From positions 1-57,929 of the IMG/VR virus record IMGVR_UViG_3300045988_084596: DNA of 57,929 bases. One strand, given 5' to 3'. This document shows, one piece after another, positions 7,617 through 40,738 of this stretch. Made by a program: the position numbers and the translations under genes. Positions within the stretch are counted from its first letter, which is position 1. The number at the start of each line of letters is the position of its first letter. The notes below the pieces were generated by a model. It worked only from the letters and a program-made list of their open reading frames with translations, ran no database searches and was not told the DNA's origin. The DNA is from a virus.

Positions 7617-7629
7617 ATCATTTAAATAA

Positions 7630-10419: not shown

Positions 10420-10504
10420 AATTAACGCCTCCTTTTTCTCATCTAAAATATTTAAAAAATCTTATATTTTTTATAAATATAATTGGCCAAGAGGCTGACG
10501 AGTT

Positions 10505-10876: not shown

Positions 10877-10896
10877 AATTAAGACTCCTTTTTCTC

Positions 10897-11637: not shown

Positions 11638-11651
11638 ATACTATCAACTCC

Positions 11652-21600: not shown

Positions 21601-24323
21601 AATGCCGTTGAAATAGCTGCCCCCACTCCTGTAATACCTATAGCTGCGGTTTTAGCTGAAGCTCCAACCGTTAAATAAGATATTGCAGTTAAACTATTCT
21701 ATAAAGCGTTCTCCTTAAATAAAGTTGAAATAGCAGGCAGCAACATTCCTAAATTAGTAAGAATAATATTAAAATCCTCAAGAGTAAATTCTCCATCTTT
21801 AATGGAATCACTAAAAGTAGAAAATATAGAATTAATACTTGTTATTCCCATTGTAATCTAAGATAAAGAAGTACCAACTTTAACAAGAGTCTCTGCCCAA
21901 TCTAAAGAAGCATATCTATTATTTTTTAACCCTTGAGTTATCTAATCCATTTCCTACTTTAATCTAGCGAGACCCTGTTCAAATGCCTAGCTACTAATTT
22001 CATTATTTTTAAACGCAGCAACTAATCCACTCAGATCATTCTTAAATCTAATTGAACCGTCTCCTAACGATCCAATAATTCTGGTTAAAGCAGTTACATC
22101 CTAAGCGGCCGTTCTAGTATCTGCGCTAAACTATCCCTATATAGAAAGATATTCTATTATCTCTTGATTCGTTGCATCCTGAGCGCCTTCAAAAAGATTT
22201 AAATTTCTAACTAAATCAATGGTACTCTAAGATATTTGATCTGTCCCAGATCCAACTAATCTCTATACTTCCTAAAATTTAGATAAATTTATACTTGCAT
22301 CTTTTAATTTAGAAATTAAAGCCTATAAAGCATCCTAATTTGACTTTAGCTAATCATTATAAAGAATTCCTTCTTCTACGTCTCCATATAAAGAAAAATT
22401 TTTCTCATCCTCTTTAACTAAGCCTTCTAATAATTTATTTCTCCAATTACTATTAGGGCCTAAATGGTCAGATAGACTATTAGTATAAGAAGCAATTAAA
22501 CTATCAGATTCGGTGACCTACTATCCAATTAAATTTACCTAAGTCTATAAAGTTTTTACTCTATCCAAATCTTGCTACAGAAGCCCAGCCTGACGCTCTG
22601 ATAACTATGTAGCAGCTGCCGCTGACTCACCCTAAAGACGCACAATCTCCGCCTAAGTGCCAACCATCTTCCCCTATATAGTATCTTCAAGAGTAGATTT
22701 TGCAATTATATCTGCCATCGCCGCAGCCTAATTTCTTAAATCTTGCGCACGATCTTTTTCTCTTTTTCCAATAATTCCCAAGTTAGCAGCTATATCTCTC
22801 ATGCCCTAAGCTATTTTATCTCCAAAAGCTTTATTCATCAATAAAGCCGTAGTCACTAAAACACCTGACATTCCACCTAATCCATCTATAATATCAGCCG
22901 TTACAGTTAAAATAGGAGTAAGAATATTATCAACGGTAATATAAAAGTCCGAATTTATTAAACTATCATAAATATCTTCCGCGGAAGCTCTTACTCTATC
23001 TCTTGCAGCTTCCCAAGATTCAGCGTAAATATCCGCCTACTCCTAAAGAGATCCTTCTGCCCCATAAGCACTAGCTAAATTCTCCTAAAAGAAATCCCAA
23101 TTATCCATAAGAGCAATAAGACGAGTATACTAACGAGCTCCAGCTACGGTCTAAGCTAAAGCAATTTGCTAGTCATTAGATAAAGTCTCCCACTTTGTTC
23201 CTAATTCTTCAAGTAGAGTATCCATTTCTTTAATCTATCCATTAGTATCAAAAATATCAATACCCACTTTTTCAAGAGCTTTAGAATATTTATTTAATGT
23301 AGTACCATCATCAAGTGTTTCACCTAAATTTAAACCCTAAATACGGGCAAAGATAGTTCTAAAAGCTGTACCTACTGTATTAGCAGATTCACGAGTAGTT
23401 GCAGTAACAGTAGCAAGAGCAGATGCAGCATATTCATAACTCAATCCAACTGTATCTGCAACAGCGGCAAACTATTGAATACCCTCTGAGATTTCATCAG
23501 AGCTAGATGCTGTATCGGCACCTAAACGCACCATTACGTCAGCATAATATTCAAGACTCTTACTTCCATCATAGAAGTTATTCCAAACTGCGGTTAACTG
23601 ATCCGAAGCTGTCTATGCACTAACTCCCGCGGCATTAGCCATTTTAATAGTTGTTTCAGTTCTATCTAGAACTTCCTACTCAGTAAGACCTTGCTGATAA
23701 TAGATTAAAGCAGCATCAGTATAATCAACCGTAGTTGTACTTAACGCTTTAGCTGCCTCATTTGCCTATTTAGCAAACTTAGCCATATCTTCTGAGGAAT
23801 TTTCAGTAACTATACGAATATTTGTTAATGATTCATTTAAATCTTGTGCGTATCCATAGGCTGTTTCTAAAGAGCCAATAAATCCCTATAACGCACTCGC
23901 TGTGATCTACCATCGAACAGTATTCTTCATTGTAATCCATAAATCAGACATTAGCTTATTTGTTCTAATTAATGGAGTTTCCGCAGCCATAATAGATTGA
24001 GAAAGATTTAAAAATGTTTCCTATCCTTTAATACCTAACTTACTAAGCTAATTATAATAATCTGTTAAAGTTTTTCCACTCTTTGCCAAACTATCATTAA
24101 ACATTATAAGATCTAGTTTACCAGAAGAACTATTTGTAGCCATCTAAAGATTTCGTCCCAATTCAAGAGCTGCTAAAGAAGCCTCTCTTAATTCTTTGGA
24201 AATAGATGACTAACTACCTAGTTTCTATAAACTATTTATAATTTCATTAATAGAAACTTTTAATTGACTTGTATCTGCGTCAAAACCAACAGAATACTTT
24301 ATCCTTCTATTGTTACTGGCCAC
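15618..24323 (-). CDS. tape measure protein, ~2901 aa, extremely TAG-rich
   Basis: GTG at 24323 after AAAGGAGGAAAAGGAT. N-terminus VASNNRRIKYSVGFDADTSQLKVSINEII. The same frame contains ORF 19806-20123 and C-terminal ORF 16038-16379, which bears the conserved TMP C-terminal motif GGYTGEFDNAKLAFLHEKELVLNQEDTKNIL. TAA at 15618-15620. Across 8.7 kb only two segments of 60 or more codons are free of stops, so in-frame TAGs are dense. Lies between the chaperone gene and the tail tip genes. Confidence 0.6.
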
Positions 24324-24339: not shown

Positions 24340-24395
24340 TATCACTATAAAAAAATAAGGCTCTTGAGAATTATATCTCAAGAGCCTTTTAATTC
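24340..24395 (-). terminator. intrinsic terminator-like hairpin between the chaperone gene and the tape measure start
   Basis: On the minus strand: GGCTCTTGAGA tataatt TCTCAAGAGCC followed by TTATTTTTTTAT, then the tape measure RBS. Confidence 0.5.
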
Positions 24396-24426: not shown

Positions 24427-24966
24427 TTAATCTTTTCCAACCACATCTTTAATTACCGATAAAGCCTCAAGATTCTCACCATTTTTAATTTTATTCAACA
24501 TATCGGTAATATATGTATCTAATCCAGAAGCATTTTTATTCATCATTTGGATAATGCCTGCGGCAGAGCTATTATATCTTGCTATATCGCTTAGAGTATC
24601 TTTAACTAAATCTTCAATAAAAGACAATTCATCTACTGGAATAGCACTTCTAACTGCATCAATAACACCATTAGTCTCTAGTGTATCGTAAGTTTTTGCA
24701 ATATTTTCATGCACATCTTCTTGCTCAAAAACGATTCCACCATACCACCTGCAAATAGCAATAGCAAAATAAGTTTCTACTCTCACCGGACTAAAACATC
24801 CAGTCATCTCATCTATCGCTAAATCTGCGACAAAAGTAATAAGATTTGTTTTATCTGTAATCGGGAGATAATTAACCACAGACAAAATCTTATCTTCTCC
24901 AATTTTTACTTCTGTATATTTAATTTTAGGCTCCAAACCCAAATCTTTAAAAGTAATTTCACTCAT
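24427..24966 (-). CDS. tail assembly chaperone (gpG-like position), 179 aa, TAG-free
   Basis: RBS AAAGGAG before ATG. Acidic protein immediately upstream of the tape measure gene and downstream of a consensus promoter. Confidence 0.5.
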   Translation of the reverse strand: MSEITFKDLGLEPKIKYTEVKIGEDKILSVVNYLPITDKTNLITFVADLAIDEMTGCFSPVRVETYFAIAICRWYGGIVFEQEDVHENIAKTYDTLETNGVIDAVRSAIPVDELSFIEDLVKDTLSDIARYNSSAAGIIQMMNKNASGLDTYITDMLNKIKNGENLEALSVIKDVVGKD

Positions 24967-24998: not shown

Positions 24999-25027
24999 AT
25001 TATACTAGAAAAATTAACTATTGTCAA
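24999..25027 (-). promoter_or_regulatory. consensus sigma70-type promoter driving the chaperone and tape measure genes
   Basis: Minus strand TTGACA-atagttaatttttctag(17)-TATAAT. Confidence 0.55.
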
Positions 25028-25031
25028 GTTT

Positions 25032-26474
25032 TTAATATGCGTATTTAGACAATATATTATTGTTTAATGTAGCAGAAATTGTTAATTTACTTATGACTTC
25101 ATTAATTATATTACTACGAGTTAAAGCGTCTAATACATTTGGACCAGTATTTCCATACCACTTATTACCGGTAGAATTTTCTCCCCCAATAGAAACTATT
25201 TCATGACCGCTATTGCGAACTATATCATCACAAATATTATTTATAATACGCTAAATAGAAAAAACTTTACCATTAACAATAAGTAACTGACCAAGATGTC
25301 CTTTAGAAGAAGCTAGACCGCCAGAAGAAACCCATTCATTAAAAAATGAGGCGGCTACCGATGCACGAATATTATTAAAAGATTCTTCAAAATCTGATCC
25401 AGTGAACCTATGAGCAATCATATTATAAGCAAGATATTTTTCCGGCTAACCAGAAAAATAATCCCCTACATTCATATTTGAAAAAACCTAAATTCTATTT
25501 GCAGATTTCTTTTTATTCTACCACTTTGCATTAACATTAGCACTAATTTCTATATTAAATACTTGATTACCCTTAGTTACTGACAAATTAAAAACATCAT
25601 TATTAAAAACTTTAGCAGCACCTCTACTTCCATTGTCAGAAGTAGTATTCTATCCTCTATCAACCCACTTTAATTTCCCACCAGACTATTTAATAGCAGT
25701 ATCTAATATACTATCCGCAGTATTAATTCCAATAGATATACCTTCTGCGACTATAGCTTGACTAATCTAATTTCCAATAACTTTTCTAAAAATATATGAT
25801 ATTGTATTAGCAAAAGATCTAGAGCTTACACTTCCACCTTCATTTAATCTTGAAACCGCTCTACTCAACGAATCTATTACTTCTTTCGCTACATTGATAT
25901 CCCCATCTTCAATAGACATAACATAGTGCTGCTAAGAATTATCTATCTAAAAACTAGTACCAACTAGCGATCTTCCTATCTAGGTTAAAGCATCAAGAAC
26001 ACTGACATTTATCATATTGGCTTTCATAAGAGCCTATATCAATAATCTAAAAAAATCATTAACTCTTTTTATATCAGGTGTCCCATTAGCCAACAAATTA
26101 TTAAAATTGCCAGCCTATTGTAATATAATATTATAATTTTCAAAATTTACCTATCCACCGGCTAATTCAATTCCTTCATTGATACCTGCCGCGATCTAAT
26201 CAAGAGTAGAATCCAATAAAGTGCCAATCTATAAATCACTTAAAACTCTCAATCCACTCGCGGCAACCGGACCTTTAGATTGCATCTATTCTTGAATTGA
26301 TGCAATCTAAGTCTCAATTCCCGCAGTCTTCATTTTACTCATTGCCTCTTGATACTATCCACTAAAGAGAATATTTGCGGACTCTACATCTCCGTACTCT
26401 CTTAAATGACTGCTATGATAAACAATATAATTTAAAGACCAACGCTATACATAATCATAAATATTAACATCCAT
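25032..26474 (-). CDS. tail structural protein (~480 aa), many TAG codons
   Basis: RBS AAGGAGATATAGGAAT before ATG at 26474; in-frame TAA at 25032-25034. No ORF of 60 or more codons without TAG. Confidence 0.4.
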
Positions 26475-26533
26475 ATTCCTATATCTCCTTATAAAAAGAA
26501 AAAGGGAGGACTTTATTAAGTCCTCCCTTAAAA

Positions 26534-27925
26534 TTAAATGGTGTCATCGCTAACAGAGACTAACTTATTGCGCATTTTTGCGCCAGAATAAGTACTTGTG
26601 CTTTCTGCAAAACTGAGCTTGTTATTAATAGTATAACTCTTCTCAAAGTCTCCGTTAATCTTAGTAATCTTAGCTGTAATAGGAGTTGTATTACTCTCCT
26701 TAGTAAGAATTACTAATAGGCCATCTGCCAATTCTGCACCATCTACGGTTTGAGTCTTTGTATTGCCCTCAATACGGTCATCAGTAGAGAAGTATTTCTC
26801 ATATGCTGGGTTAGTTGTTACTACAGTATACTTGGTACTATCACTCTCTACTGGAATTTGGAGGCTAATTTGTGCGGCCTCTGGAATTGTATCTCCATAA
26901 GCCTCAGTGTCATAAGCCTTTCCTGTTACAGTACCAGTTACATCAAGCTCCGCCTCTGTGGCACTGTTAGAAACAAAATTTACAGTTACATCAGCAGCTT
27001 CACTCTCATAAGTACCAACATTCTCAGAGCATGGCTCACGAGAACCTTCGGTTTCCCCAGTTTCATCAGTAATTACCTGAATAGCGGCAAGAACTTTATG
27101 AGTTTGATCAAACTTAGTGTAGTCTGGGAAAGCGTCCATTGTGAATGTAAAGGTAGATGGATCACCGTTAGCAGCCATGCTAAATGTGAAGTTACTCTGA
27201 ACCTTGCAGTTAGGAATAATAAATTCAGCAGGCATATCTACGCCATCGCTCTCACGGCGGAATAGAGTAGAAGCTTCAAGATAATAGTTTCCGCCAAACT
27301 TATCAGCGGTAATCTCAATCATCTGGGCACCACCAGTACGCTTTACATAATAGTCAACTAAAACGATAGTACCAGATGGGAGCACTCCCGCATGAGAATA
27401 GCAAGTTAAAGTTGATTTTCCGTCCTCTGTATAAGAAACAGAAACAGGAATACATGGTTCAGCATTAACTTGACCATCATCTCCTAATACCATTACAAAA
27501 ATGTCAGCAGAACGATGATACATTTCATTTTCATGATCTGCAAATCCATTCCAGCAAGCTTTATCAGGAATCACGATAGTGTTAGCTGTTTCAACTTCTA
27601 CCTGAGAAGTTTGATGAACGTAAATTGGAGCTTCTTTTGTTGCATCAAGCAGACCTGCACCAGAAAGAATAGAGAAACTCTCTGGAGAAAGCAAAGCATC
27701 TTCCATTGTAAATGTTAGAGTACGCTCACCTTCCCAAGCAATCAATCTAGTATATCCACGTCCGCCCTGTGCGTATACAGTTGTTGCAGCACCTTCAAGA
27801 GTAGAGGTTCTTAAAGTGTCAAAGTACAAAACTGGTTCATTTTTATAGAACTTACGATTACCTAAAGTCTGATAGCTTTTGGCACGAAGTACTACATCGC
27901 AAATCTCACGAATACCAAAACGCAT
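26534..27925 (-). CDS. major tail (tube) protein with C-terminal Ig-like/Thr-rich region, 463 aa, TAG-free
   Basis: RBS GGAGGAATTAGCTC before ATG. Long uninterrupted ORF with a Thr/Ser-rich, Ig-like repetitive C-terminal half; position upstream of chaperone and tape measure. Confidence 0.5.
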   Translation of the reverse strand: MRFGIREICDVVLRAKSYQTLGNRKFYKNEPVLYFDTLRTSTLEGAATTVYAQGGRGYTRLIAWEGERTLTFTMEDALLSPESFSILSGAGLLDATKEAPIYVHQTSQVEVETANTIVIPDKACWNGFADHENEMYHRSADIFVMVLGDDGQVNAEPCIPVSVSYTEDGKSTLTCYSHAGVLPSGTIVLVDYYVKRTGGAQMIEITADKFGGNYYLEASTLFRRESDGVDMPAEFIIPNCKVQSNFTFSMAANGDPSTFTFTMDAFPDYTKFDQTHKVLAAIQVITDETGETEGSREPCSENVGTYESEAADVTVNFVSNSATEAELDVTGTVTGKAYDTEAYGDTIPEAAQISLQIPVESDSTKYTVVTTNPAYEKYFSTDDRIEGNTKTQTVDGAELADGLLVILTKESNTTPITAKITKINGDFEKSYTINNKLSFAESTSTYSGAKMRNKLVSVSDDTI

Positions 27926-27939
27926 GAGCTAATTCCTCC

Positions 27940-28665
27940 TTAATTTTTAGGATGTATATCTCGCATCCATGATTCAACTGGTTTATCTGGTTTGCCGCCC
28001 GCAAGACGAACCCGCAAGTCAACATCCCATTCAATAAACGCATTATATCTTTCCATCAAATCAAATATCTAAAACATATTTAGATTTAAGCAATCCTCTA
28101 AACTCATTGTATTAGATCCGATTGTCAAGATAGATATATAGCGTGTTAGAACACTCTCATTATTTCCTTTGCTTTTGATTTCTGCTACTTTTCGTCTACC
28201 GCGCATTAACTTTTCAGCAATTTCTTTAGCTCGGTCATTAGCTGGATTATAGATAACATTATTTCCCTAAAATAGACTGTTTACACACAAAATCTCTTTT
28301 AGTACGCTTTGAAAAATATCAAAGTTATTATCATCTATTAACAAAGGCTAATTTTCTCCTTGCTTAGTTAAAATTATTGAATTTCTAGTTATTACTGGTA
28401 TATAATCAGGAAATAATAATGTAAGTAGCATAATAACAGCATTTTTTTTATCTTTATCCTGTGACTATTCTAACACCTTCATCAATACTTGAAAATTAGT
28501 TAATGATGATAAAAGAGTTTCGTCCTATATTAATGATTCTTTATCTAAACATAAATATTGAACTGCCATAAAAAATTTTGTCTCTCCCATAAGAGCTATC
28601 TCTTTAATGACGGGAACGTGAATAGTAAGTTGTAATTCAGGAATGGGAATATCAATCCCGGCCAT
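27940..28665 (-). CDS. hypothetical tail-module protein (240 aa), several TAG codons
   Basis: ATG at 28665; TAA at 27940-27942, just before the major tail gene RBS. Confidence 0.35.
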
Positions 28666-28681
28666 TAAAGCTAGTCTATAA

Positions 28682-29218
28682 TCAAGCAAGCGGATTTACC
28701 TTATCTTCATTTCCGCGAATAGCAAGATATGTTAGAGACAAACCAGCAAATTCTTCATCATATATATATGGCGTAGCTGATACAAATTCTAGCTCTCCTA
28801 TACCCGTTAAATGAGTTCCATCAAGCATTGAATCTATCTCTCCCGCGATTCGATAAGGCCGTAAATCATAATCTCCCAAATCCCAATTATCATAATGACA
28901 AATAATATCAATACCAAATGTATTATCTCTATATTCAGGATTTGTAGAATTTCTAACCATAGTGCCATAGATCAATCTTAAATAAGATTTTTCTGGTCTA
29001 TCAACCTTTATCTTAGGAACAGCAGAAATCTACTTAGTATCAATCATTTCCTTTATCATATCTCCTGTAACGGTCGGTTTACTTTTCCAATCTCTAGTAT
29101 TATAAGTTAATAATTTCAAAACATTCTAATTAGAAAGTATTCTTTCCATAATCAGAGAAGCATCTTTCTACATACCTAACAAACTAGATTTAGGATACTC
29201 ATAAGTATTTTTTTTCAT
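28682..29218 (-). CDS. hypothetical head-tail joining module protein (178 aa), TAG codons, TGA stop
   Basis: RBS AAGGAGAGTGAATTGAA before ATG at 29218. Frame matches ORF 28682-28975, which ends on TGA. Confidence 0.4.
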
Positions 29219-29233
29219 TTCAATTCACTCTCC

Positions 29234-30208
29234 TTAAAATAAAGATTCTACTACAATAACTTTTTCCAGTACAGTATTATCCTTCTTCCATACTAGAGTG
29301 AATTGACCATGAGTAGTTTTATTCCACACCAACTAAACAGATTTATTTCCATTTGGACATAAAGTTACAGGAACATTCTTTTCCAATATTGACCAAGCTC
29401 CATTAGCTTCTTCTACAGAATAAGATTCTTCTATCATTGGTTTAATAAAAGTCTCTCCCATAATCCCGCTATTTGGAGTAGGATCTTCTGGTTCGAATAT
29501 TAAACCATCTTTCATACTATTTTCTATATCATCAGTATCTCTATTTATATAATCTTCTTCTGCACTCACTTCAATTACATTCTTCATACTTATATCATCT
29601 GGAGCCTAAACTTTCCAACATCTTCCAGCGAACAAAAATTCACTATATCTATCAAAAGCATGAATAGTTTTTTCATTTCTTGGCATAAGTATGTTTAAGC
29701 TAAGATTAGGTTTATCCAATCTTTCTTGATTCTTCTAAATAGACTCGATTTGGGTTTCAACTGGACCTCGAATCGCAGCCCAAGTCTAACACCAATTCCC
29801 TTCCTAATCTTTAAACTTAATTCTATATCTACAACGTCTTATTTCCCCTCTAAAATAAGCGTCCTCAGTTATTTCTTCAAGATAAATTATCCAATGAGTG
29901 CCAGTTTTTTTCCACTCAAAGACATCTCCAGGCGCATATTGATTAATATGATCTATGGAGATTATCTTATCATCATAGTCCTGTTTCACTTTATCTGGAT
30001 TAATAAGCGCACGACACATAGGATAAATATTCATATCTGGATCAACAGCATCTAACGTTGCATCTAAAACCTAGGTTGACTTCTAGACTAATTGAACAGT
30101 ACAGGCTTGATAAGAATATAATAATGCTTTCTAAAGAGTTCTCCATTTATCTTTGATCATTCTATCTTCCTAGTGAATACCACCCTACCATTCAAATCTT
30201 TTTCGCAT
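29234..30208 (-). CDS. hypothetical protein (324 aa), TAG codons
   Basis: ATG at 30208. Frame matches ORFs 29804-30034 and 29333-29587; TAA at 29234-29236. Confidence 0.4.
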
Positions 30209-30212
30209 TAAT

Positions 30213-30538
30213 TCAAGATTCGTCATCTCTAATCACCTACGCCAACAAATCAATACATCTAAAGACTGTTTTTCGATAAATCATAAAATCATTACAGACA
30301 TTTGAAGATAACCCTTCCAGTTTAGACAATAAAATAAGTCCCTCAACTCTATCTTTATATATTTTAACCAATCCACTAATTTCTTCTGTTATTACATTCA
30401 AATGATTTACCCAGTCTTCATTATTCTCTCTCATTGGAATTAACTTCCATAACTAATTAATCAATCTCTTTAAATCCTACTCTTTTGTTTCTAATGGGAA
30501 ATTAATATCATATTTATCCATCAAAAACACTCGTCTCT
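30213..30538 (-). CDS. hypothetical protein (108 aa), TAG codons
   Basis: ATG at 30538; reads through TAG at 30237-30239 to TGA at 30213-30215. Confidence 0.3.
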
Positions 30539-30711
30539 CTTAATGTTGACCAGTTTGATTTATAAGAGCCTTGATTATCAATTAGTTTTCTTCTTTTATA
30601 GAGACGCTGCATATGATGACTTTGACGTTCTGCTTCCTTTTTCAACTCTATTAATTTGGCTAAATGATTGGCCTAGGAAGTCATTTTAAAATCTGTTCCA
30701 GAATATTTCAT
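30524..30711 (-). CDS. small basic protein (62 aa)
   Basis: ATG at 30711; one TAG; TAA stop. Confidence 0.3.
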
Positions 30712-30717
30712 TCTCGT

Positions 30718-31072
30718 CTATTCTATTGAAGCCACCTGGCGTTGCAACCAAGTATTATACATTAGAATAGCAAGAATGTTTATTTCTTCTGTCGTTAAAT
30801 GTGCAGAAAAGGCTGGAATAATAGTTGCTATTCCAGTCTCTTCATCATTGTTTTCTATATTGGTAAAACTGTATAATGGAAAACGAGGGAATTCAAAACC
30901 AGGAAGAGCATCCATTAATATATTATATAAATCTTTTTCGGTATCTTCCTATGTCCATTCCATATACATATCATCAGTAATTTTACCAAAAAATCTATCA
31001 TAAATTTCTTCAAAGGGGGTCGGATCGCCCTAAATTGGATATTTTTTATTATCCATGGCTATAACCTCCCTT
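30718..31072 (-). CDS. head-tail connector-like small protein (118 aa), 2 TAG codons
   Basis: ATG at 31072, directly downstream of the 177-aa gene; position in a head-completion cluster. Confidence 0.35.
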
Positions 31073-31075
31073 ATA

Positions 31076-31609
31076 TCAATCAGAAATAGCTACTCTGCGT
31101 TTTGGAGCATCCTCACTTGTAGTTGACACTCTTCTTACAGGTTTCTCTTCCTTAGGATTCTTTTTATCATCTGCTGTTAATTCTAATGCTTTAGTAACAT
31201 TAAATCCTAATTGTTTTTCCAAAGCATCTCTTTTAGACATATCATTTAAGGGAAGAGAAATAGCATGGGATTTAATCAGATCTTTGGTGCCTTCTGGAGC
31301 AAAATCAAGAGCATCCTTAAATTCATCTAAAGAACACGTATTCATCCAAGAATCAATCTCTTCTTCTTTCATCCAATACTCTGGTTCAACCCTACCATTA
31401 ATAAGATATTTAACAATCTCTCTATCATCTACAAGCAAGTAATTATAAATTAATTTGCGGCCTCCAGGTGTTTGTACTAGCTTTTCTAGTTCAGATACTT
31501 CAAGTTCCTTGTGTTCTCCAGGGTAAAACATACGGCGCACGCCCAATTCAGGCAATCTATATACAACACGACCTGCGCTTTTATTATAAACAGTGCAACT
31601 ATTTTTCAT
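31076..31609 (-). CDS. hypothetical head-module protein (177 aa), TAG-free
   Basis: Complete ORF from the track, immediately downstream of the major capsid gene. Confidence 0.45.
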   Translation of the reverse strand: MKNSCTVYNKSAGRVVYRLPELGVRRMFYPGEHKELEVSELEKLVQTPGGRKLIYNYLLVDDREIVKYLINGRVEPEYWMKEEEIDSWMNTCSLDEFKDALDFAPEGTKDLIKSHAISLPLNDMSKRDALEKQLGFNVTKALELTADDKKNPKEEKPVRRVSTTSEDAPKRRVAISD

Positions 31610-31673
31610 AATTTTTATCTCCTTTTTCTCAATAAATAAAAGGGGATAGGGATATTTCCCTATCCCCTGTCAA

Positions 31674-32726
31674 TTAACCATTATTTGGATTTGGGTTAGT
31701 ATTATCAAGCTCGCCTTGAAGTTCAGTATCAACATAAGAGAAGATGTTATTCGCCATCATTACACCGACACCAACCTTACGGTAAACCTGAATATCACGA
31801 GACCAGTCGTCATTATCATCGCGTTCGCGCACGTGGGTAGTACCCTCAAAAGCAACTTTTACAGGACGGCTCTCAGCTCCGCCAGGAATAATCCAAGCAT
31901 AACCTGGATCGATCATCTTTTTGGAGTTAGTCTCATCCTCAAGAGTTTGAGGTAGAATTACCACTCTAGTTCCCTTGTAATTTGCAAGATAACCAGTTCC
32001 CCAATACTGATCTCTCATATTGTCAGAAATCCAAGCATCATTGTCTGGAATCATTTTTACTGCAAACTCACGAGTGCAATAAATAGTTGGCTGACCATAA
32101 GCAGTAGCAGTATTTACAAGATAATCCATAGTTGGTTCGTCAAAACCAGCAACAGCACAACGGTTTGCTGCGGGAAGCTGATTGATAGAACCCATAAGAG
32201 CTTGAGCAATCTCTCTATAAATAAGCTCTTGCATACCCTCTGTTACAATTTGAGTAAGTTCTGCAAAGTTTACTCTTCCGTCAAGGAACTCCTCAAATCC
32301 GATACGAGCAGCTCCACCAATGGCGCTTGTTCCAACTTCAAAGCTCTCAGAACCAAGCTTAAAGGTCTCATACACACCAGCAAGTCCCACACGAGTAATG
32401 AATTGCTTAGCGCGAGTAAGTCCAGTTCTACGAGTAAATACAGGCTTGTCGCCTTGTGCGAAAGTTCTAATCTCAGCAAAATTGCCATAAGAATTGAGTA
32501 AACGATTAGGAACAACTTCATCCATAGTCTGCTCAATTAAAGAGAATAGAGTATTTTTATTTTCTCTATAAAGTTCATCTGTGCCAACAAATTCATTTAG
32601 CTCATTACGCAAAGTGATATTTAAAGCGTCATAGCTAAAAGACTCTCCTTGATAGCTATAGGTACCAGAAGGATTTGCATTAGCGACAGTTTTCATTAAA
32701 CTAAGTAAATTAGCTTTATCTAACAT
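31674..32726 (-). CDS. major capsid protein (HK97-fold candidate), 350 aa, TAG-free
   Basis: Uninterrupted ORF downstream of scaffold and decoration-like genes. Size and composition are typical of HK97-like capsid proteins; followed by hairpin GGGGATAGGGA/TCCCTATCCCC. Confidence 0.65.
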   Translation of the reverse strand: MLDKANLLSLMKTVANANPSGTYSYQGESFSYDALNITLRNELNEFVGTDELYRENKNTLFSLIEQTMDEVVPNRLLNSYGNFAEIRTFAQGDKPVFTRRTGLTRAKQFITRVGLAGVYETFKLGSESFEVGTSAIGGAARIGFEEFLDGRVNFAELTQIVTEGMQELIYREIAQALMGSINQLPAANRCAVAGFDEPTMDYLVNTATAYGQPTIYCTREFAVKMIPDNDAWISDNMRDQYWGTGYLANYKGTRVVILPQTLEDETNSKKMIDPGYAWIIPGGAESRPVKVAFEGTTHVRERDDNDDWSRDIQVYRKVGVGVMMANNIFSYVDTELQGELDNTNPNPNNG

Positions 32727-32745
32727 TCTTCTTCACTCCTTCCAA

Positions 32746-33435
32746 TTAACCTACACGCTGTACTTTTACACCAGGTTGAAGATCTGGCATAGTATACACT
32801 TTTACTACTGCAAAGATAGGATCTAAATCTCCACCTTTAGCAGAAGTTTCAGTATCTTTAGTTAAATATCCATCAGTATCAATCTTTAGACGATCGCCTA
32901 CTGCAAGTTCTCCGGCATTAGCCTTAATGGTATTAGTAGTCCAAATATCACCAATGCTAATCTTAATTACGCGAGGTACCATTTTAGTTCCTTCTGGCAT
33001 CAATGCAGGATAAGTAAATGTCTCCATATTTTTCTTATATGCTACATCACTACCTTCGCGTACAGCTTCTCCGGTATAATCACTTATTGTAGCAAGTGTA
33101 GAAACTGTTTGTCCAATTGGACTATATACACGAGCATTATAATTATCCTTAATCATAGCAAAATCAGCGTCAGTTTCGCGATCTCTATAAATCTTTACTT
33201 CATTAAATACCATCATCCAAGCGCCAGAAGTAGCTTCCGTACTAAAATCGCATACGCCTTTTGCATAATCATACTTTACAAATTGACCGTTCTCAAGAAT
33301 CTCAATAGTGCTAGCTGCGGGAAGCTGAGCATATACTTGACCATTTCTTGGAGCGGAAAGATGGTTTGGCTCCACTTGACCATATCCATACTGGACAAAA
33401 GTGGCATTACCTAATCTTTTAGAACTCTTAGCCAT
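32746..33435 (-). CDS. capsid decoration or second capsid-associated protein (229 aa), TAG-free
   Basis: Sits between the scaffold and major capsid genes. Confidence 0.4.
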   Translation of the reverse strand: MAKSSKRLGNATFVQYGYGQVEPNHLSAPRNGQVYAQLPAASTIEILENGQFVKYDYAKGVCDFSTEATSGAWMMVFNEVKIYRDRETDADFAMIKDNYNARVYSPIGQTVSTLATISDYTGEAVREGSDVAYKKNMETFTYPALMPEGTKMVPRVIKISIGDIWTTNTIKANAGELAVGDRLKIDTDGYLTKDTETSAKGGDLDPIFAVVKVYTMPDLQPGVKVQRVG

Positions 33436-33448
33436 TCTTTAATCCTCC

Positions 33449-34066
33449 TTAAATACTGCTTTTAGCAGTTTCACGAATTGCTTTTACCCAATCAGGAACG
33501 TTGTCAGTTTCTGGATTATTTAAATTAAAAAGTCCCTTTGGGGTATTATCTTCTTCTTTATGCTTTTCTTCAAGATTGAAATTTACTTTATTTCTAACAC
33601 AAAGAATAGATAATTTAGCTTCAATATCATCTAAAGAATAAGTATCAATATGCTCAGCGACATCTTTCTTATCCTCATCACTTAACATATAGAAACTATC
33701 AATCATTTGTTGTTTACTTTGACGTTCAGCATTAAGTTTAAATTCTCTTAGTACTGTAACTTCATTATCTAGATTAGTTTTTTCTTGCTCAAGAGCAGAG
33801 TACTTAGTCTCTAGATCGGTAAACTTTGTAAGTAACTCTGTATATTCTGTTACTTCTTCAAGATTATACTTCTTATCTTGAGGAGCGTTCTTTTCCTTCT
33901 CTTTCTCGGAAGTTGGAGCAGGATTTTCAGAAGTCTTCTTATCCTCTTCAGGATTAGGAGTATTTTTCTCGAAATCGGTAGGTACTTTATTCTCTTTCTC
34001 CATAGGTTCTTGAGAGCCTCCTTTATTTAAAGTTTCTTTTAATTGATCCATCATAGAATACATCAT
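33449..34066 (-). CDS. scaffolding protein (205 aa), TAG-free
   Basis: Highly charged, Glu/Lys-rich with predicted coiled coil (TELLTKFTDLETKYSALEQEKTNLDNEVTVLREFKLNAERQ). Lies between the portal/protease and capsid genes. Confidence 0.6.
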   Translation of the reverse strand: MMYSMMDQLKETLNKGGSQEPMEKENKVPTDFEKNTPNPEEDKKTSENPAPTSEKEKEKNAPQDKKYNLEEVTEYTELLTKFTDLETKYSALEQEKTNLDNEVTVLREFKLNAERQSKQQMIDSFYMLSDEDKKDVAEHIDTYSLDDIEAKLSILCVRNKVNFNLEEKHKEEDNTPKGLFNLNNPETDNVPDWVKAIRETAKSSI

Positions 34067-34078
34067 AGTTTTAAGTTT

Positions 34079-34664
34079 CTAAAACTCTTGATTATTCTCT
34101 AAAGAAAATTGAGAACTAAATTGAGCTCCCTCGAAACAAGGCTCAACATTTTCTCCGAGAACACATAATTTCTCAATCAATGCCTCATTGTAGATAAAGA
34201 TTCTTTCATTTGTTTTATCATCTTTTGTCCAAAATCCTGATTGGTTTTCTTCATTCAATTCCATAGAATGGTTATTGCCATTCTCCAGGATTCTTTTAGA
34301 TTCTGGATAAACGCTAGTCCAAATGTATACATCTGTCACAAGATATTCTCTTTCTACGCCTTCATCATTGAACTTCTAAAACCATACATTTGCATTTGTA
34401 GGAACAAATCCATATGGTCTTGTAGTATCAACAATAGCAAACTTACCATCTCGAACAATAATTTCTCTGTTGTGGCCTTCAAAATCATTTATTTCATGAT
34501 TAAAATATCCAACAATAGGACTTCCTGGTAGTTTACGTCCCATTTCCGCGGCCACTTCTTTGGTAATTACAGTATGGTTGCGGTTAGGTTGCTACCCAAC
34601 GTAGCAAACTTTGCAGACACCTTTACTAACTAGAGGAGAAATCTAAGTGTTCTAAATATATTCC
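34079..34664 (-). CDS. possible prohead protease or other head maturation protein (~195 aa), 4 TAG codons
   Basis: RBS AAGGAGGGATTGAACTTGC, then ATG at 34664. The frame reads through TAGs into ORF 34079-34339. Assignment rests on its position between portal and scaffold only. Confidence 0.3.
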
Positions 34665-34710
34665 ATTGTATTTAAAATGGGAACACTAATATGCAAGTTC
34701 AATCCCTCCT

Positions 34711-36336
34711 TTATGACGAACTTTCTTGATTAGCTATTGTCTTATCTGACTTTTCGCCATCTTCTTTTTTGGGCCTGCCGGCTCCATTAGTATTAGTTGA
34801 ACTTGTCTACTTATTCTAAGAATTAGTTTTAGATAACTAATTATTATTACCCAAATCTTTTCCGCTTCTGGTATTAGAACTCATAGGTGGAATCATAATT
34901 TCTGCCAAATTCAATACTTCGTTCTCAAATGTTAATGTAGCTAATATACTCGATTGAGAGTGACCTAAAGCAATCTGTGGCAACATCTTAGAATAACCCA
35001 GTTGAGCGTGCTCTTTATATAATTTAGATAACTCTTTATAATTAAACTAGGTAGTTTCTAACATTTCCGCTCTAAACTCATAATGATTTTTGCGATTAAA
35101 TTTCTCTACTACTCGATTTAATAAATCTGTAAACATGAGAGGAATATCTCTTACGCTAGATTCATCTGTCAAAATAGAATTTGTAACTGCAATATTGCCA
35201 TCTGCATTAAACAAATTATGAGTTACACCTGAGTTATTATAAACTGTACGTTCAACTTTTTCCAAATCGTCTGTTGTTGTATTAGAATTATTATCTTTTG
35301 TATCAATTTTTTCAATATCTGCAAAAGTTGTTAATACATCTACACCAATAGCTCGTTTTAACATAGTTACAGCATTATTATGAATATCCCTTGCTTCATC
35401 AACATCAAAAATCAAATCTCCATTTTTATCAAGAGGCAACTTCTAAATAATAATTTTTAATAATTGTTGCATTGTCTTTTGACGATCTAATTCTTGCGCT
35501 TGATCCAAATCAATAATAGAAGGAATAACCCCAGCTAGAAAAGGAAATTCATTATCATTTAGACTAAACTTTACAGAAATACTAGGATCTAGTGGATACC
35601 ATACAGTAGTATCACCTGGATAATCCCCTTTTAATTTTCCCTGTTTATAAAGAATATATGCCTTTTGAATGTCCTGTGGAAAAATCTTTAATATCTAGAT
35701 TTTATACTGCGGATTGGCAAAATAAGTGTCAAAAAACTAAAGATTTAATTCTACTATTGGATTAGGGCCCTAGAAATATCTACTTCTGCAATATGAAGCT
35801 GGTAATTTCTAAATTGCAAATCTATCTCCAAAATCAACAATTACACCATAATAAGCTCCTTCTTTAATAATATCTAATGATATATTTCCAAGCATTCTCT
35901 TCACACTAGATTTATCAAGGTAAAGCAAGACCTTTGAAAAATCTTTCAATAGCTTATCTTTATCTTTCTACGCATCTACTGTGTATGGAGTAATATACCA
36001 ATCAAATCTATATAAGAAGGCTAAATATTTACATAATCTATAATAAATACCGCTACTTTCATAAAAGTAATTAGAAATCTCTCTTAAAGTCTTGTAATCA
36101 TGCTTATAAATAGCATTTAATACAAACTTTTTATCTCCATAATTTCTATTTATCTTTTTATATGTGCCTAGATTAATAAGCGCATCATCCACAGACCGTA
36201 ATCCAACTCGCATTTTTGCATAATCAACAGTATCATAGTTCAAAAAATCTTCTTCCTATTGATAACGAGTAATAATACCTCGATCTAGTAGATCAAAACC
36301 TTTAGCTCTTATTTCTTCCTATCGACGTTTTAACAA
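34711..36336 (-). CDS. portal protein (~541 aa), many TAG codons
   Basis: RBS GGAGGTGATAT then TTG at 36336. One frame contains ORFs 35968-36243 and 35047-35439 and ends at TAA 34711-34713. Position directly after terminase large subunit and the nuclease insert. Confidence 0.55.
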
Positions 36337-36354
36337 AATATCACCTCCAGGTGT

Positions 36355-36710
36355 TAATATCCAGCTTTACTCATTAAATAATCATAAGAGATGATATTTT
36401 CCTCCGTATAGGGAACTTCAATGAGGGTAATACCTTTTAATGCACAAAATCTACGCTTTTGATTATCATTATATTTCTATTGGTATAATCCTCTATTTCC
36501 ACCAAATTTACTAACAGCCTAATAATGCTATTTACCCTGATACTCAATTAAAAAATCAAGATTTCCATCATCATCAAAAACAGCAAAATCAAAACGAAGT
36601 GGCCTGCCACTTGGCGCTTTCAGCCCAGGAAACTCATACTCTTCTTTAAAGTTCATGCCATTTTGCTCTAATATCTCATGAATTTTAATTTCTCCACGAC
36701 TGGCCTTCAT
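36355..36710 (-). CDS. PD-(D/E)xK-type nuclease-like protein (118 aa), possible homing/selfish endonuclease
   Basis: Motif FDFAVFDDDGNLDFLIEYQGKQH (D...ExK core). ATG overlaps the terminase large subunit stop; two TAG codons; TAA at 36355-36357. Confidence 0.45.
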
Positions 36711-36713: not shown

Positions 36714-38459
36714 TTACACCTCACTCATAAACATAAAATCTGAAAATCTTCTACTTTTACGCTTGCGTTTACTATCCTCTTCCTATTTAATATAATATAA
36801 TCCATATTCAAGCGCAGAGAATTTATCTTTGGGCACAGACTTATTTGCCTGTTTTAAAATAATATTTACACCCTCATTTTCTTCTCGCAAATTTAGCATT
36901 TCTTCTCTTAATATAGAAGTTAAAGTGAATGGTTTTAAATATTCTGCCCGCTCTTCTGGTTTCATGGCTTGACCTTTCTTGGTACCAAGTAATTTATTTC
37001 TAGCAACTTTTTCGTCGATTAAAAATCTTAACTTTCCAGCCCGCAACTATGTCTAAACATTGCTATGGGCTTCGGTATTAATTGGCGCATTTGCCTTAAT
37101 TTCATAAATAGCATCATATTCTGTATTATCTGTTCTAAACCGTTTATATTCTCCATCTTCGTCATTGGCTACACCAAAATCAGGAAAAACCTCGTTAGTA
37201 TCTGGTACTATTTGTGGTTTAACCATGTAATCCATCAATCCAGCACCAAGTCCATTACCGTCAATAACAATAATTTTAGCTTTATAATCATAATATAATC
37301 TTTTTAGCTTAATTGCCTAATCTTCAAAATGTTCATCATCCATAGTATATATATTAACAAGAGACTTAATCGCTGGTCCTTGAGACTGAGGGGTTACTTT
37401 AAATACACATACAACAGATTGACATTTCTTTCTTCCTACATCAACAGAAAGAACATAATATGCTTGAGCAGAAGAGCGTCCGGAAGATTCATATTCAGGC
37501 TAAAGCAATTTTCTACTTCTATCAAAAGCATCACCATTAAAGAAGGCATCTTCTACGGTGCCACTCCATTTAGATTCATACTCTCTATCAAATGATGCTT
37601 CATTAAATGTACCATCTTGTTTTAACTCCTATACAAAGTTGCGGGATTGCAATCCCACTAGCACAGGAATTCTCCATGTTCCGCCCATTACAATACTCTT
37701 TTCGGGTTCTAGTATCATGCGCACTAGCAAAGTAATCAACTTATTATATGGGAATGTGTTTTTCCACCCCGCAGTAGTAACATAAATCTAGGATTTATTG
37801 AGTGTTTCTTCTTCATGAACAGATCCATCTAAACATCTTCTATCAACGTTCATTAGAGGGATTAAAACTTCATTTAAAATATCCCCATCTACACCAACGC
37901 ACTCCTCAATTAATCCTCCATGTCTACGCTTACCACGAGAAGATTCTCTAGCAGCAACGTTGTCAAAATAAGATCCATTTTTGAAGATATACTTACAATA
38001 ATCTTTTCCTTCCTAAGTCTTACCTCTTCGCCAATCAATCTCTCTCTAAAGCGCGGGAATCGCATTACAAATTTCCTAGACTTTTTCTTTTGCTATACCT
38101 GCTGCCTGTTCTTTTCCACCAGAAGTAATGAATAGCTTACATCCAGGATATAATATACATCTACACATAAGCACCGTTACTGATAAGAATGACTTAGAAT
38201 AGGCACGAGGAAATACCATGTATACATACTTATATCTCATAGCCGCCCGCAAGAAAACTCTCTAATAAAAATAAAAATTAATTTCTTTTTTTCTTGTCTC
38301 GTCTCCGCCGGTCTACAAAAAGTCAATAAACATATCTGGATATTCTCTCCAAAAAGCTATATACTATCTTGCTGCTGGAATTATCGCACGAACTCTTTCT
38401 TCGGAAAGGCCAATTTTCTTATTATTATTTGAAAGGTTTAATAAATCTTTTAATGCCAT
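36714..38459 (-). CDS. terL: terminase large subunit (581 aa), about 12 TAG codons
   Basis: RBS AAAGGAGG 8 nt before ATG at 38459. The continuous frame was checked block by block through ORFs 37053-37238 and 36783-37046; TAA at 36714-36716. Carries an ATPase-like N-terminal half and an RNaseH-like nuclease half (IVIDGNGLGAGLMDY). Confidence 0.65.
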
Positions 38460-38462: not shown

Positions 38463-39632
38463 TTAAACCTCCTTTAATATATTATTTAACATTTCCTCAT
38501 CTTTGTCTCTTTCCGACTCTTTCATATCTTCATACTCTTGATAATCTTCTTCTGTTAATTCTGGATGCTCGTAATTAAATAAATCTTCATCCTCATCGCT
38601 ATCTTCAACATCAATATTTGCCTCGCGTTCTCTGTCTTTAACTATTTCTCTTAACGAAGCTTCGATCATATTACCAAGATTCATTTCCTCTGTAACTAGA
38701 GTATGAGTATATTGCTGTAAATCCTAAAGAGTTCTATCTACTTTATCTTGGGGTCCTTCCGTATAATATCTAGGAATAAAACCCTCTCTTTCACAAAGGG
38801 CTACTAATTCACCTATTGAATCTACAAATTCACCGGATTCGCCTTTGTTCTAAGCAGCCGTAAATTTGCCGCTTTTCATTAAACTATCATAGGCTTTTTG
38901 CATCTTCTAAAAGCCATCAATATCTCCAGCATCAATTAACTAATTTGCTTTTAAACTAGCTTTACATACCATAATAAGAGTATCTTTATGACCCGCTCCT
39001 TGAATATCATAAGAACTCATCATATCATTGTAAAGCTGCTCCATTCTTACTCTTTCTTCCCAAGAATATCCGCGGCCCCATTTAAGACGTAATACTAATT
39101 TATCTTCTTCGGTTAGCTAATCACCAAAATCATCATCTTCCTCTGGATCTTCATATTCTGGAGTTCCTACAGGGGCCTAAACATCCTCTAATTCTTTTGG
39201 TTTTGGAGGAGTTCTATCAATAGACAACTGCTCTTGAATTTCATCTTCTGTAAATCCTTGAGCCTTCATATTAAGAACTTTTTTATCAATGGAATCTTTC
39301 TCTAGCGTTTCTGTATCTGCCCAAGTGTATTTATTCCATTGCTTTAATTTCATTTTAGATAAATAGCGTCCAATAATAGTTAATCCAGTAACTTTCTTTG
39401 GATCTTTTCCATATTTCTCCAATAAACCATTCCATTCTTCTTTAATATATGGAACGTCAATCTCCTATAAAATCCATTTATAAGTTTCTGGATCCCAGTT
39501 ATCTACATGCATAGTAAGACACTTTTTACAAATATCCATCTTTCCATCTGGAGGATACTTCTCTAAATTTTTTGACGTATAAAACTATTTATCATCCATA
39601 GTTTTACCACATTTTTTACAATAATGGCTCAT
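38463..39632 (-). CDS. packaging-associated protein with N-terminal zinc ribbon and acidic C-terminus (389 aa), possible terminase small subunit
   Basis: ATG at 39632. Frame includes ORFs 39177-39422 and 38463-38684. N-terminus CKKCGKTMDDKQFYTSKN...DICKKC; position immediately upstream of terminase large subunit. Confidence 0.35.
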
Positions 39633-39638: not shown

Positions 39639-40709
39639 TCAACCTCTTTTCTTATTGCGACAGCGCTTACAAATACTATACAAATTATCCTTACTTGTCT
39701 TATTCTTTGAAAAGAATTGATTATGGGCTGGCTTTAATTGCCCACACTTAGAACATTTTTTCATTGGGTATCCTTTTTGTTTATACTACCAACGTAAAAA
39801 ATCTTCTAAAGCCTCTTCCGCAATGAGTTTAGGAATCTTATTTCTCCATAGGCTAGAAATATATTCAACACTATATGTTTTACCAAACTCATTTTTTAAT
39901 ATTTCCTATATTTCGTTATTCTACTTTTTATCAATTTTGAGTTCAACAATTCGTAAATAGATTGGAAAGTCTTTGAGAGCTTTATCACATATTTCTTCAA
40001 ATGATTGAATTAAATACCATGTATCTCCCTCAAACTAATCATAACTATCCTCTTTTAATTTTGAATAATTGCATAAAATAGCAGAAACAACATTGGCGTC
40101 CATTAGCGAAATACCCTTTACTACTACCTTCTGTCCATTAAGATAACTCTAATCATCAAGAGAAATATGAGTTCTTACGGATCTCGTTAATTTACATGGT
40201 ATAATAGGTTTCTAATATGCTTGCTTAATGATATACTAATCTTTTCGCATCTCTATTAATGCTTTTTTCATCATATATGCCTATTTTGTCCCAGCAGCGC
40301 GTTTTAAAGCACCCTCCCAGACATTAATGGTTTCTCTCAACTATTTTAAACATGGTATAGTATCTAAATCTTTCTGTGTAATAGAAATCTTTGGCTAAAA
40401 TATAACATTTTTATTTTCTGACATTAAACCATAAATGCCATCCTCGCCATTTTCCATCTATGACGCAAGCCCTTCGAAAGAACATTCTCTTTTATTAACA
40501 GTAGCCATTCTATTATCTGTTAATATATTCTTTTCTTTCTTATCTTGCTTTTCCATACATAGAACTAAATAATCTGCTAATATTTCTAAATAACTCGAAC
40601 TAAGGTTCGGATTTTCTGCGATTATTTTTTCGACAAGCGCCTTCCGTTCTTCTGGAGACTCAATAGTATAATCTAATTTTATCATACTGTCATCTCCTTT
40701 TATACTCAT
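39639..40709 (-). CDS. DNA-binding-like protein (356 aa) with C-terminal CxxCG...CKRC zinc ribbon, 10 or more TAG codons
   Basis: ATG at 40709 from the track; same frame through TAGs to TGA 39639-39641. C-terminus CSKCGQLKPAHNQFFSKNKTSKDNLYSICKRC. Confidence 0.35.
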
Positions 40710-40738
40710 ATAATAACAAAAAAAAACTAGATTGTCAA
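40710..40738 (-). promoter_or_regulatory. sigma70-type promoter for the late/packaging operon
   Basis: Minus strand TTGACA-atctagtttttttttgt(17)-TATTAT, about 10 nt upstream of RBS AAAGGAGATGACAGT. Confidence 0.45.

Follow-up and report, generated by a model that had tools for sequence, protein, structure and literature searches.

The capsid, tail tube and three further late genes of a TAG-recoded siphophage contain no TAG codon

Gut phages that read the stop codon TAG as glutamine in their late genes (genetic code 15) have been described repeatedly (Ivanova 2014, Yutin 2021, Borges 2021/2022, Peters 2022). TAG is likewise read as glutamine by phAss-1 (proposed genus Phassvirus), which possesses three Sup-CTA tRNAs (Babkin 2023) and for which Clostridia have been suggested as host. 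Here, we analysed a relative of phAss-1, the IMG/VR virus record IMGVR_UViG_3300045988_084596 (positions 1-57,929, the entire stretch being referred to as the window), and report that five genes of its recoded late cluster, including those for the major capsid and the tail tube protein, are devoid of TAG.

Previous work on code-15 phages contrasted early with late genes or noted an enrichment of recoded stops in lysis genes; a TAG-free subset of late genes is not described there, and the Borges preprint, in which structural and lysis genes are recoded as a block, never mentions the capsid. Individual capsid genes did attract remarks. One crAss-like capsid gene without in-frame stops was reported by Yutin 2021, and a recent preprint (bioRxiv 10.64898/2026.08.21.746148) judged it "surprising" that the capsid gene of one crAss-like phage lacks TAG, proposing translational efficiency as the reason. 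Among the 715 code-15 genomes of Cook 2024, a capsid protein was found in 407 with translation table 11 versus 475 with table 15. In the table published for phAss-1, open reading frames (ORFs) 23-26 are listed, uncommented, without suppressor TAG (Babkin et al.); they comprise the capsid gene with the two genes ahead of it and the one behind. While the earlier capsid remarks (Yutin 2021 and the 2026 preprint) concerned single genes and came without statistics, we here delineate a set of genes and quantify TAG relative to the ordinary glutamine codons.

TAG-free genes within a recoded late cluster

The virus is a siphophage of the phAss-1/SPbeta-like group that reads TAG as glutamine. Its closest described relative is phAss-1 (OQ749652), with which it shares 52% capsid-protein identity, an identical gene order and the alignment of TAG with glutamine, whereas the lineage of the window has a higher AT content and makes far denser use of TAG (TAG share among glutamine-type codons, 0.56 versus 0.17). 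More distant relatives, namely Enterococcus phage EF1 and SPbeta-like phages, use the standard code. Orthologues of most genes between the phrog_3314 gene (38463-39632) and the tube gene occur in the same order in phAss-1 and EF1, at 22-59% identity. Features known from code-15 phages recur here: in-frame TAGs cluster in structural and other late genes, early genes can be read with the standard code, and a tRNA(CTA) lies within a large tRNA array.

When TAG was treated as a sense codon, ORFs of 100 codons or more added up to 71.5 kb instead of 30.8 kb, and the portal, terminase and tape measure genes were restored to full length. On the minus strand, one continuous late cluster (2385-40709) then comprises 26 genes and 12,343 codons, with 285 in-frame TAGs. 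Matches to PHROG families within this cluster included a portal protein, a weakly supported terminase, an HNH homing endonuclease, virion structural proteins and a sigma-factor-like protein encoded by the first gene (Table 1). On the plus strand, the early genes (41.8-57.9 kb) are nearly all without TAG: fourteen of them (41.8-57.2 kb) have 0 TAG among 53 glutamine codons, and none is terminated by TAG.

Table 1. Positions of the genes and signals discussed, with codon counts in the window and, for the genes depleted in TAG, the counts across recoded lineages
Feature	Position	Strand	Observation in the window	TAG observed vs expected across lineages
Tape measure protein gene, 2841 aa from first ATG	15618-24143	-	108 in-frame TAGs; low-copy comparison gene	
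Bidirectional terminator-like hairpin	24357-24388	.	after 179-aa gene	
179-aa gene upstream of tape measure gene	24427-24966	-	0 TAG, 2 Gln codons	0 vs 7.1 (ratio 0.00; 6 lineages)
Sigma-70 promoter-like site, TTGACA, 17-nt spacer, TATAAT	24999-25027	-	upstream of 179-aa gene	
480-aa gene directly downstream of tube gene	25032-26474	-	19 TAG, 1/25 codons, highest density in the window	
Intrinsic-terminator-like hairpin	26502-26529	-	5 nt past tube stop codon	
Tail tube protein gene, 463 aa, C-terminal Ig-like domains	26534-27925	-	0 TAG, 6 CAA, 6 CAG	0 vs 24.4 (ratio 0.00; 8 lineages)
241-aa gene directly upstream of tube gene	27940-28665	-	TAG 5/11 Gln-type codons, ordinary in the window	
177-aa gene downstream of capsid gene	31076-31609	-	0 TAG, 2 Gln codons	4 vs 13.8 (ratio 0.29; 9 lineages)
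Intrinsic-terminator-like hairpin	31641-31668	-	12-bp stem and T run, 6 nt past capsid stop codon	
Major capsid protein gene, 350 aa	31674-32726	-	0 TAG, 8 CAA, 5 CAG	0 vs 38.1 (ratio 0.00; 9 lineages)
229-aa gene directly upstream of capsid gene	32746-33435	-	0 TAG, 5 CAA, 3 CAG	1 vs 26.4 (ratio 0.04; 9 lineages)
405-aa readthrough ORF	33449-34666	-	5 TAGs, at codons 5, 8, 25, 97, 196	16 vs 39.5 (ratio 0.40, intermediate; 9 lineages)
Portal protein gene	34711-36213	-	10 TAGs; phrog_2739, E = 4e-81	
HNH homing-endonuclease gene between terminase and portal genes	36354-36710	-	3 TAGs	
Terminase large subunit gene, probable	36714-38459	-	13 TAGs; weak PHROG matches; phAss-1 orthologue annotated TerL	
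Sigma-factor-like gene, first of late cluster	39639-40709	-	11 in-frame TAGs; phrog_5767, E = 9e-38	
Promoter-like site, TTGACA, 17-nt spacer, TG, TATTAT	40710-40738	-	second-best sigma-70-type match in the region	
110-aa ORF	40812-41144	+	6 in-frame TAGs	
FolD homologue gene	41131-41916	+	4 in-frame TAGs	
212-aa helix-turn-helix protein gene	54491-55129	-	11 TAGs, amid TAG-free early region	
tRNA with CTA anticodon	L043 3726-3801		on IMGVR_UViG_3300045988_080502	

An earlier note on this DNA, made from the sequence alone, had described the 229-aa, capsid, 177-aa, tube and 179-aa ORFs as clean, and a full count with readthrough confirmed 0 TAG in each. Together, the five genes contain 37 CAA or CAG codons, as opposed to 285 TAG, 189 CAA and 56 CAG in the remaining 21 late genes (TAG share, 0.54). 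At this share, finding 0 TAG among 37 codons has a probability of about 4e-13, and a Fisher test in the near-identical locus L002 (L numbers denote individual loci of our set) gave p = 2e-12.

Could the pattern then be a product of chance and scarce glutamine? In the 177-aa and 179-aa genes taken alone this would be unremarkable, as each has a chance of about 0.2 of carrying no TAG; neither is significant by itself, and owing to their scarcity of glutamine codons in the window, the case for both rests on relatives. The capsid, tube and 229-aa genes (13, 12 and 8 glutamine codons) are each convincing in their own right, with capsid and tube each below 1e-4. Given these values, chance is refuted for the latter three genes, and with the replication in further lineages and in a crAss-like phage (below), we regard it as a practically negligible explanation of the set as a whole.

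In the TAG-bearing genes, TAG occurs on average once per 38 codons. The earlier note had ascribed a spacing of 20-30 codons to neighbouring genes; a density of 1/25-26 codons was reached in the tape measure and 480-aa genes only, with terminase and portal at 1/45-50. The same note counted a 205-aa scaffold among the clean ORFs. No separate gene of this kind emerged: the 205-aa frame is the C-terminal half (33449-34066; 7 CAA, 0 TAG) of the 405-aa readthrough ORF. An internal start was considered and rejected, since no Shine-Dalgarno sequence precedes the internal ATG and the match to phrog_3313 (residues 5-268) crosses the junction. The 405-aa product, whose start codon is uncertain, has a globular N-terminal and an acidic, coiled-coil C-terminal half and may be a scaffold; its TAG share is 0.29. 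Finally, the 179-aa gene lies outside the interval 26534-34066 within which the clean ORFs had been placed.

With respect to protein identities, the phAss-1 orthologue of the capsid protein (52% identity) carries the annotation major capsid protein (Babkin et al.), and farther matches are annotated capsid proteins in Bacillus phages Thrax1 and Kirov. For the tube protein, a structural model (predicted local distance difference test score, pLDDT, 65) returned siphophage tail tube proteins as its best 16 Foldseek matches (best E = 2e-6, probability 0.96-1.0, template modelling scores low), and its sequence matches phrog_2729 (virion structural protein). Searches of the PDB by sequence and profile gave no match for either of the two. 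The 229-aa, 177-aa and 179-aa proteins had no recognisable family or annotated homologue; tblastn with the 229-aa and 177-aa proteins retrieved unannotated homologues exclusively, and Pfam and NCBIfam yielded no match for any TAG-free protein. Accordingly, no search backed the labels 'decoration-like', 'head protein' and 'chaperone' under which these three had been listed. The last of them has a positional basis only, and a frameshift partner of the G/GT type for the 179-aa gene was not found. All five genes are preceded by strong ribosome-binding sites of the AGGAGG type.

TAG encodes glutamine. When window TAGs were aligned with the close relative L005, 90% stood opposite TAG, CAA or CAG. 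In relatives at 60-75% identity this applied to about 50%, a rate similar to that at which ordinary glutamine codons remain glutamine (50-60%). The other residues opposite window TAGs were mostly E, S, K and N. In EF1, with its standard code, glutamine was the commonest residue at these positions (22/137).

No tRNA gene was detected within the window. Its right end continues into contig IMGVR_UViG_3300045988_080502 (94-100% identical in the compared genes), the corresponding region of which harbours an array of more than 30 tRNA genes, including tRNA(CTA), tRNA-Gln(CTG) and tRNA-Gln(TTG). The tRNA(CTA) is 84% identical to a Sup-CTA tRNA of phAss-1. A search with the suppressor tRNA sequence for further code-15 phages recovered phAss-1 and unrelated tRNAs only. 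The array provides tRNAs for preferred and avoided codons alike.

Several peculiarities of these tRNA regions are worth recording. One tRNA-like gene of the array (L040 1416-1534, minus strand) has an insertion of ~42 nt and is called Lys(ctt) in the intron mode of ARAGORN, an assignment that is doubtful; nearby (L040 ~1150-1235, minus strand) lies a class-II tRNA-Tyr(GTA)-like sequence missed by that program, and a 'tRNA-Ala' was called with a 468-nt intron (L039 2690-3234). The Sup-CTA tRNA of phAss-1 at L032 3443-3533 is 88-91 nt long and has a long variable arm and a Gln-like D-loop, its charged amino acid not being obvious. Within the tRNA array of a relative (L033, ~20160 onward) we also observed a GIY-YIG-like ORF with in-frame TAGs.

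Conservation across lineages and codon optimisation

To place the window among its relatives, we compiled 29 IMG/VR loci together with phAss-1 and EF1 and compared orthologues of genes lying up to 10-20 kb away from the capsid gene. Nine non-redundant recoded lineages resulted, with capsid-protein identities of 52-100% and TAG shares in ordinary late genes of 0.15-0.57. A comparison with related recoded phages had been suggested in the earlier note, and it showed the same orthologues to retain their TAG-free state across the nine lineages, with observed counts far below expectation (Table 1). For the 177-aa gene, which carries TAG in L011 and L022, the term depletion is more apt than exclusion. 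Every other gene gave observed/expected ratios of 0.72-1.63.

This conservation contrasts with a rapid turnover of TAG positions elsewhere, most of which are not conserved. Between the window and L005 (~95% identity), 22/94 TAGs in TAG-bearing genes have become CAA or CAG and 23/84 CAA or CAG codons have become TAG, while 0/37 glutamine codons of the TAG-free set have done so. At columns of conserved glutamine in this set, 13/13 were CAA or CAG in every lineage. There is one natural variant: in L003 and L004 (99% identical contigs), Gln313 of the capsid protein, a nearly invariant residue, is encoded by TAG instead of CAG (window ~31788-31790). Thus, TAG is tolerated in the capsid gene, which fits weak selection of the codon-bias type.

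A replicate was provided by an unrelated TAG-recoded phage, the crAss-like cr7_1 (NC_055895, L048; background TAG share, 0.42). The gene annotated there as encoding the major head protein (9613-11154) contains 0 TAG, 0 CAA and 16 CAG, and a 383-aa gene that follows five genes further downstream (14225-15376) contains 1 TAG, 0 CAA and 12 CAG, as compared to up to 12 TAG among 14 glutamine-type codons in the neighbours of the latter. Both were outliers along a codon usage axis similar to that described below (CGT/GGT/ATT versus AGA/GGA/ATA/TTA). From its position, we would guess the 383-aa protein to be an auxiliary capsid protein; BLASTP detected no similarity to crAss001 gp29 or gp31-gp36. The crAss-like phages cr118_1 and cr50_1 use the standard code and were hence uninformative. 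The pattern is probably general among recoded phages.

Avoidance of TAG proved to be part of a broader codon bias. Thirteen of 18 amino acids (12 besides glutamine) differed in codon usage between the TAG-free and the other late genes (p < 0.05). In the TAG-free set, ATA accounts for 4% of isoleucine codons (32% in the other late genes), AGA for 35% (63%) and CGT for 43% (14%) of arginine, TTA for 27% (52%) of leucine and GGG for 1% (8%) of glycine codons. A principal component analysis of relative synonymous codon usage over the 26 late genes, with glutamine codons omitted, yielded a first component (PC1; 27% of the variance) running from CGT/CTT/ATT/GCT/ACT/GGT to AGA/TTA/ATA/TCA/GCG. The tube (4.07), capsid (3.90) and 229-aa genes (3.27) occupied its extreme, the former two being the most codon-optimised, followed by the 405-aa (1.07), 177-aa (1.23) and 260-aa genes. 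TAG share fell with PC1 across all 26 genes (Spearman rho = -0.85) and also within the 21 TAG-bearing ones (-0.74).

The same orthologues were biased in the same way in all ten lineages, among them the standard-code phage EF1, where TAG-free orthologues and other genes differ in ATA (0.02 versus 0.14), AGA (0.09 versus 0.44) and CGT (0.68 versus 0.37). The presence of the bias in EF1 indicates a class of codon-optimised genes that exists independently of recoding. In relatives, the TAG-free set moreover favours CAG over CAA (3 CAA:39 CAG versus 84:31 in L025; 2:25 versus 61:57 in phAss-1), and a phage tRNA-Gln(CTG) is present in both of these lineages.

Higher G+C content (0.38-0.40 versus 0.29-0.35) and codon usage unlike that of their neighbours could be taken to mean that the TAG-free genes were acquired recently from a standard-code phage and have yet to accumulate TAG. 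Such a mosaic origin seems very unlikely to us. The orthologues lack TAG in nine lineages, even where capsid identity has fallen to 52%, and their divergence tracks that of neighbouring genes, G+C content at third codon positions barely differs, and the codon differences are of the optimal type and common to the standard-code relative.

Instead, we consider it likely that translational selection has purged TAG, as one of several non-optimal codons, from the genes that are translated most heavily. The earlier note had proposed that an inefficiently decoded codon is selected against in high-copy proteins, which is consistent with every test we ran; that these genes are highly expressed, that TAG is decoded inefficiently and that selection is the cause is what we infer. 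The phage-encoded tRNA(CTA) would decode TAG as glutamine. In most late genes, TAG would be a nearly neutral glutamine codon, carried by AT-biased mutation to roughly half of the glutamine positions. From the capsid, tube and 229-aa genes, translational selection would strip TAG along with ATA, AGA, TTA and GGG, and the same effect, if weaker, would act on the 405-aa scaffold-like and 177-aa genes. TAG may be a poor codon because a single phage tRNA species reads it in competition with release factor 1. At each TAG, translation would then run a slight risk of being delayed or ended prematurely, costly only when multiplied over hundreds of copies per virion.

TAG-bearing genes, terminators and competing explanations

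How TAG behaves where it is abundant bears on whether it is disfavoured in some genes or favoured in others. The TAG share was homogeneous over the 21 TAG-bearing genes (chi2 = 21.1, df (degrees of freedom) = 20, p = 0.39). As a mutational yardstick we used the TTR/CTR pairs of leucine, the only other synonymous pairs that differ by T or C at the first position. The TAG:CAG ratio in TAG-bearing genes was 5.1:1, similar to TTA:CTA (5.4:1) and TTG:CTG (7.4:1). A homogeneous share together with a leucine-like ratio places TAG at the level predicted from AT mutation pressure, so that selection for TAG need not be invoked.

This is of relevance to the proposal, likewise raised in the earlier note, that TAG throttles low-copy proteins. 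Here, TAG would be positively selected in these genes, with ribosome loss at each TAG setting the yields of tape measure, portal and connector proteins below those of bulk proteins made from the same transcripts. Consistent with such a role, TAG share declines with codon optimisation even within TAG-bearing genes (see above), gene-specific enrichment of recoded stops has been noted in lysis genes (Borges et al.), and both genes flanking the tube gene are enriched in TAG in some relatives. The 241-aa gene, the phAss-1 orthologue of which is annotated 'tail-to-head joining protein', reaches 11 TAG among 15 glutamine-type codons in L025 (background 0.12; p = 5e-8), and the 480-aa gene reaches 15/24 in L006 (background 0.25; p = 1e-4). 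In addition, one alignment column of the 241-aa gene is TAG in 6/6 lineages (P = 5e-4), albeit with borderline significance (~0.04) once corrected for the 76 conserved-glutamine columns. The orthologues at issue for the enrichment or the shared position are those of L025, L011, L008 and L001. In the window, however, a throttle is not needed, as the TAG share is homogeneous and matches the bias deduced from leucine. TAG positions generally turn over fast, and an appreciable loss per codon, compounded over 108 TAGs, would nearly abolish the tape measure protein. We therefore rate a throttle as quite unlikely.

Putative transcription signals accompany some of the TAG-free genes. Of the terminator-like hairpins within 18 kb, the strongest three immediately follow the capsid, tube and 179-aa genes (Table 1). 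A strong hairpin (-20 to -25 kcal/mol) follows the capsid orthologue in 7/10 lineages, standard-code EF1 included, and the one after the tube orthologue is kept in 6/8. The earlier placement of TAG-free and TAG-bearing genes in the same operons was thus too strong: they share a cluster, but one with strong terminator hairpins after three of the TAG-free genes. The site at 24999-25027, a putative promoter by consensus match only, is the sole 12/12 match to the sigma-70 consensus in 18 kb. With this site and its hairpin, the 179-aa gene looks like a self-contained unit within the tail module that is compatible with the standard code.

Independence of the suppressor tRNA might also be what the TAG-free late genes have in common, in that they could be translated before the suppressor accumulates or when it fails, for instance owing to host nucleases that cut tRNAs. 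The early plus-strand genes, equally without TAG, would conform to this idea, as in the Borges model, and so would the 179-aa gene, which is not optimised, is TAG-free in 6/6 lineages and combines a perfect match to a host-type promoter with a terminator. Yet, the codon usage of the capsid, tube and 229-aa genes is unlike that of early genes, which freely use GCC/GCG, CTG/CTC, CGG and GGG, codons that the TAG-free late genes shun. Capsid and tube proteins would, moreover, yield no virions when the TAG-laden portal, connector and tape measure proteins are missing, and the codon optimisation of the same genes in a standard-code relative would be left unexplained. Such a timing role consequently appears improbable.

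Several points nevertheless weigh against translational selection as the source of the pattern. Abundances and copy numbers are deduced from homology, codon bias and terminators, and the capsid and tube proteins are the only products of TAG-free genes whose identity is supported; the AlphaFold model of the capsid protein (29-sequence alignment; pLDDT 48) is unusable, leaving its fold unconfirmed. With a PC1 of 0.02, the 179-aa gene is not codon-optimised, yet is TAG-free in all 6 lineages, and may lack TAG for another reason, compare its own consensus host-type promoter. That 108 TAGs are tolerated in the tape measure gene implies very efficient decoding and a small cost per codon, so the explanation demands selection on very small differences. 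Finally, in the low-TAG lineages L008, L012, L025 and phAss-1, the TAG:CAG ratio of ordinary genes is 3-7 times below the leucine analogue, meaning that mutational equilibrium is not reached in every lineage.

One might go further and view TAG as a graded expression dial, with exclusion from genes for bulk proteins, drift in most late genes and, as a third setting, enrichment or fixation where expression is damped or gated. We offer this tentatively and hold it to be unlikely overall. Candidates for the third setting are the tail-terminator-like 241-aa gene, the 480-aa gene, the TAG column shared by 6/6 lineages and the sigma-like gene. The latter encodes a protein with a C-terminal zinc-finger/HNH-like tail and is located directly behind the promoter-like site at 40710-40738. 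Suppressor-dependent translation of the sigma-like factor may thus act as a gate on late transcription.

Further features of the locus and significance

Outside the late cluster, TAG is carried by three exceptions, namely the FolD homologue, the 110-aa ORF and the 212-aa helix-turn-helix gene (Table 1). Within the cluster, the tape measure frame is open for ~55 codons upstream of its first ATG (24143-24310, minus strand) and holds 3 further TAGs there, and the true start may be an upstream non-ATG codon. Next to the tail-fibre genes at the left end lies a reverse transcriptase gene (24-1241, plus strand; Pfam RVT_1, E = 1e-16) with 3 in-frame TAGs, which is probably part of a diversity-generating retroelement. 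A template/variable repeat pair was not found within positions 1-12000 of the window, and the template may be situated beyond its left end.

Two of the TAG-free early genes on the plus strand have recognisable products: a microbial-type poly(ADP-ribose) glycohydrolase (42495-43262; E = 7e-26) and a PTH2-type peptidyl-tRNA hydrolase (43247-43684; E = 1e-22). The hydrolase could be relevant to peptidyl-tRNA drop-off at TAG codons.

The depletion of poor codons from highly expressed genes is familiar from other systems. In a ciliate with reassigned UAA and UAG, the 10% most highly expressed genes use these codons less, for which translational inefficiency was suggested (McGowan 2023). The phage differs from the ciliate in that the tRNA reading the reassigned codon is encoded by the virus and the host, judging from relatives, uses the standard code, which makes competition with the release factor probably part of the cost of TAG. 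It also differs in extent, with a near all-or-none depletion in place of the mild shift in the ciliate. The principle is hence known and the capsid case has been remarked upon before; what we add is the gene set, its statistics, a mutational baseline and a replicate in another phage family.

Our findings suggest that a reassigned stop codon of a phage acts as an ordinary poor codon, which saturates genes at low expression and is purged from those expressed most highly, and they add a caveat to the current model of uniformly recoded late genes. In practical terms, gene callers set to the standard code can pick up capsid and tube genes in code-15 phages but miss the portal, terminase and tail genes. 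The result also offers a natural yardstick for the cost of suppressor decoding and a comparison for engineered amber-suppression systems and recoded hosts. In uncultured recoded phages, the per-gene TAG share could indicate relative expression from sequence alone. Should the dial hold true, with an 11-TAG sigma-like gene behind a near-consensus host promoter, late transcription in these phages would depend on the suppressor tRNA.

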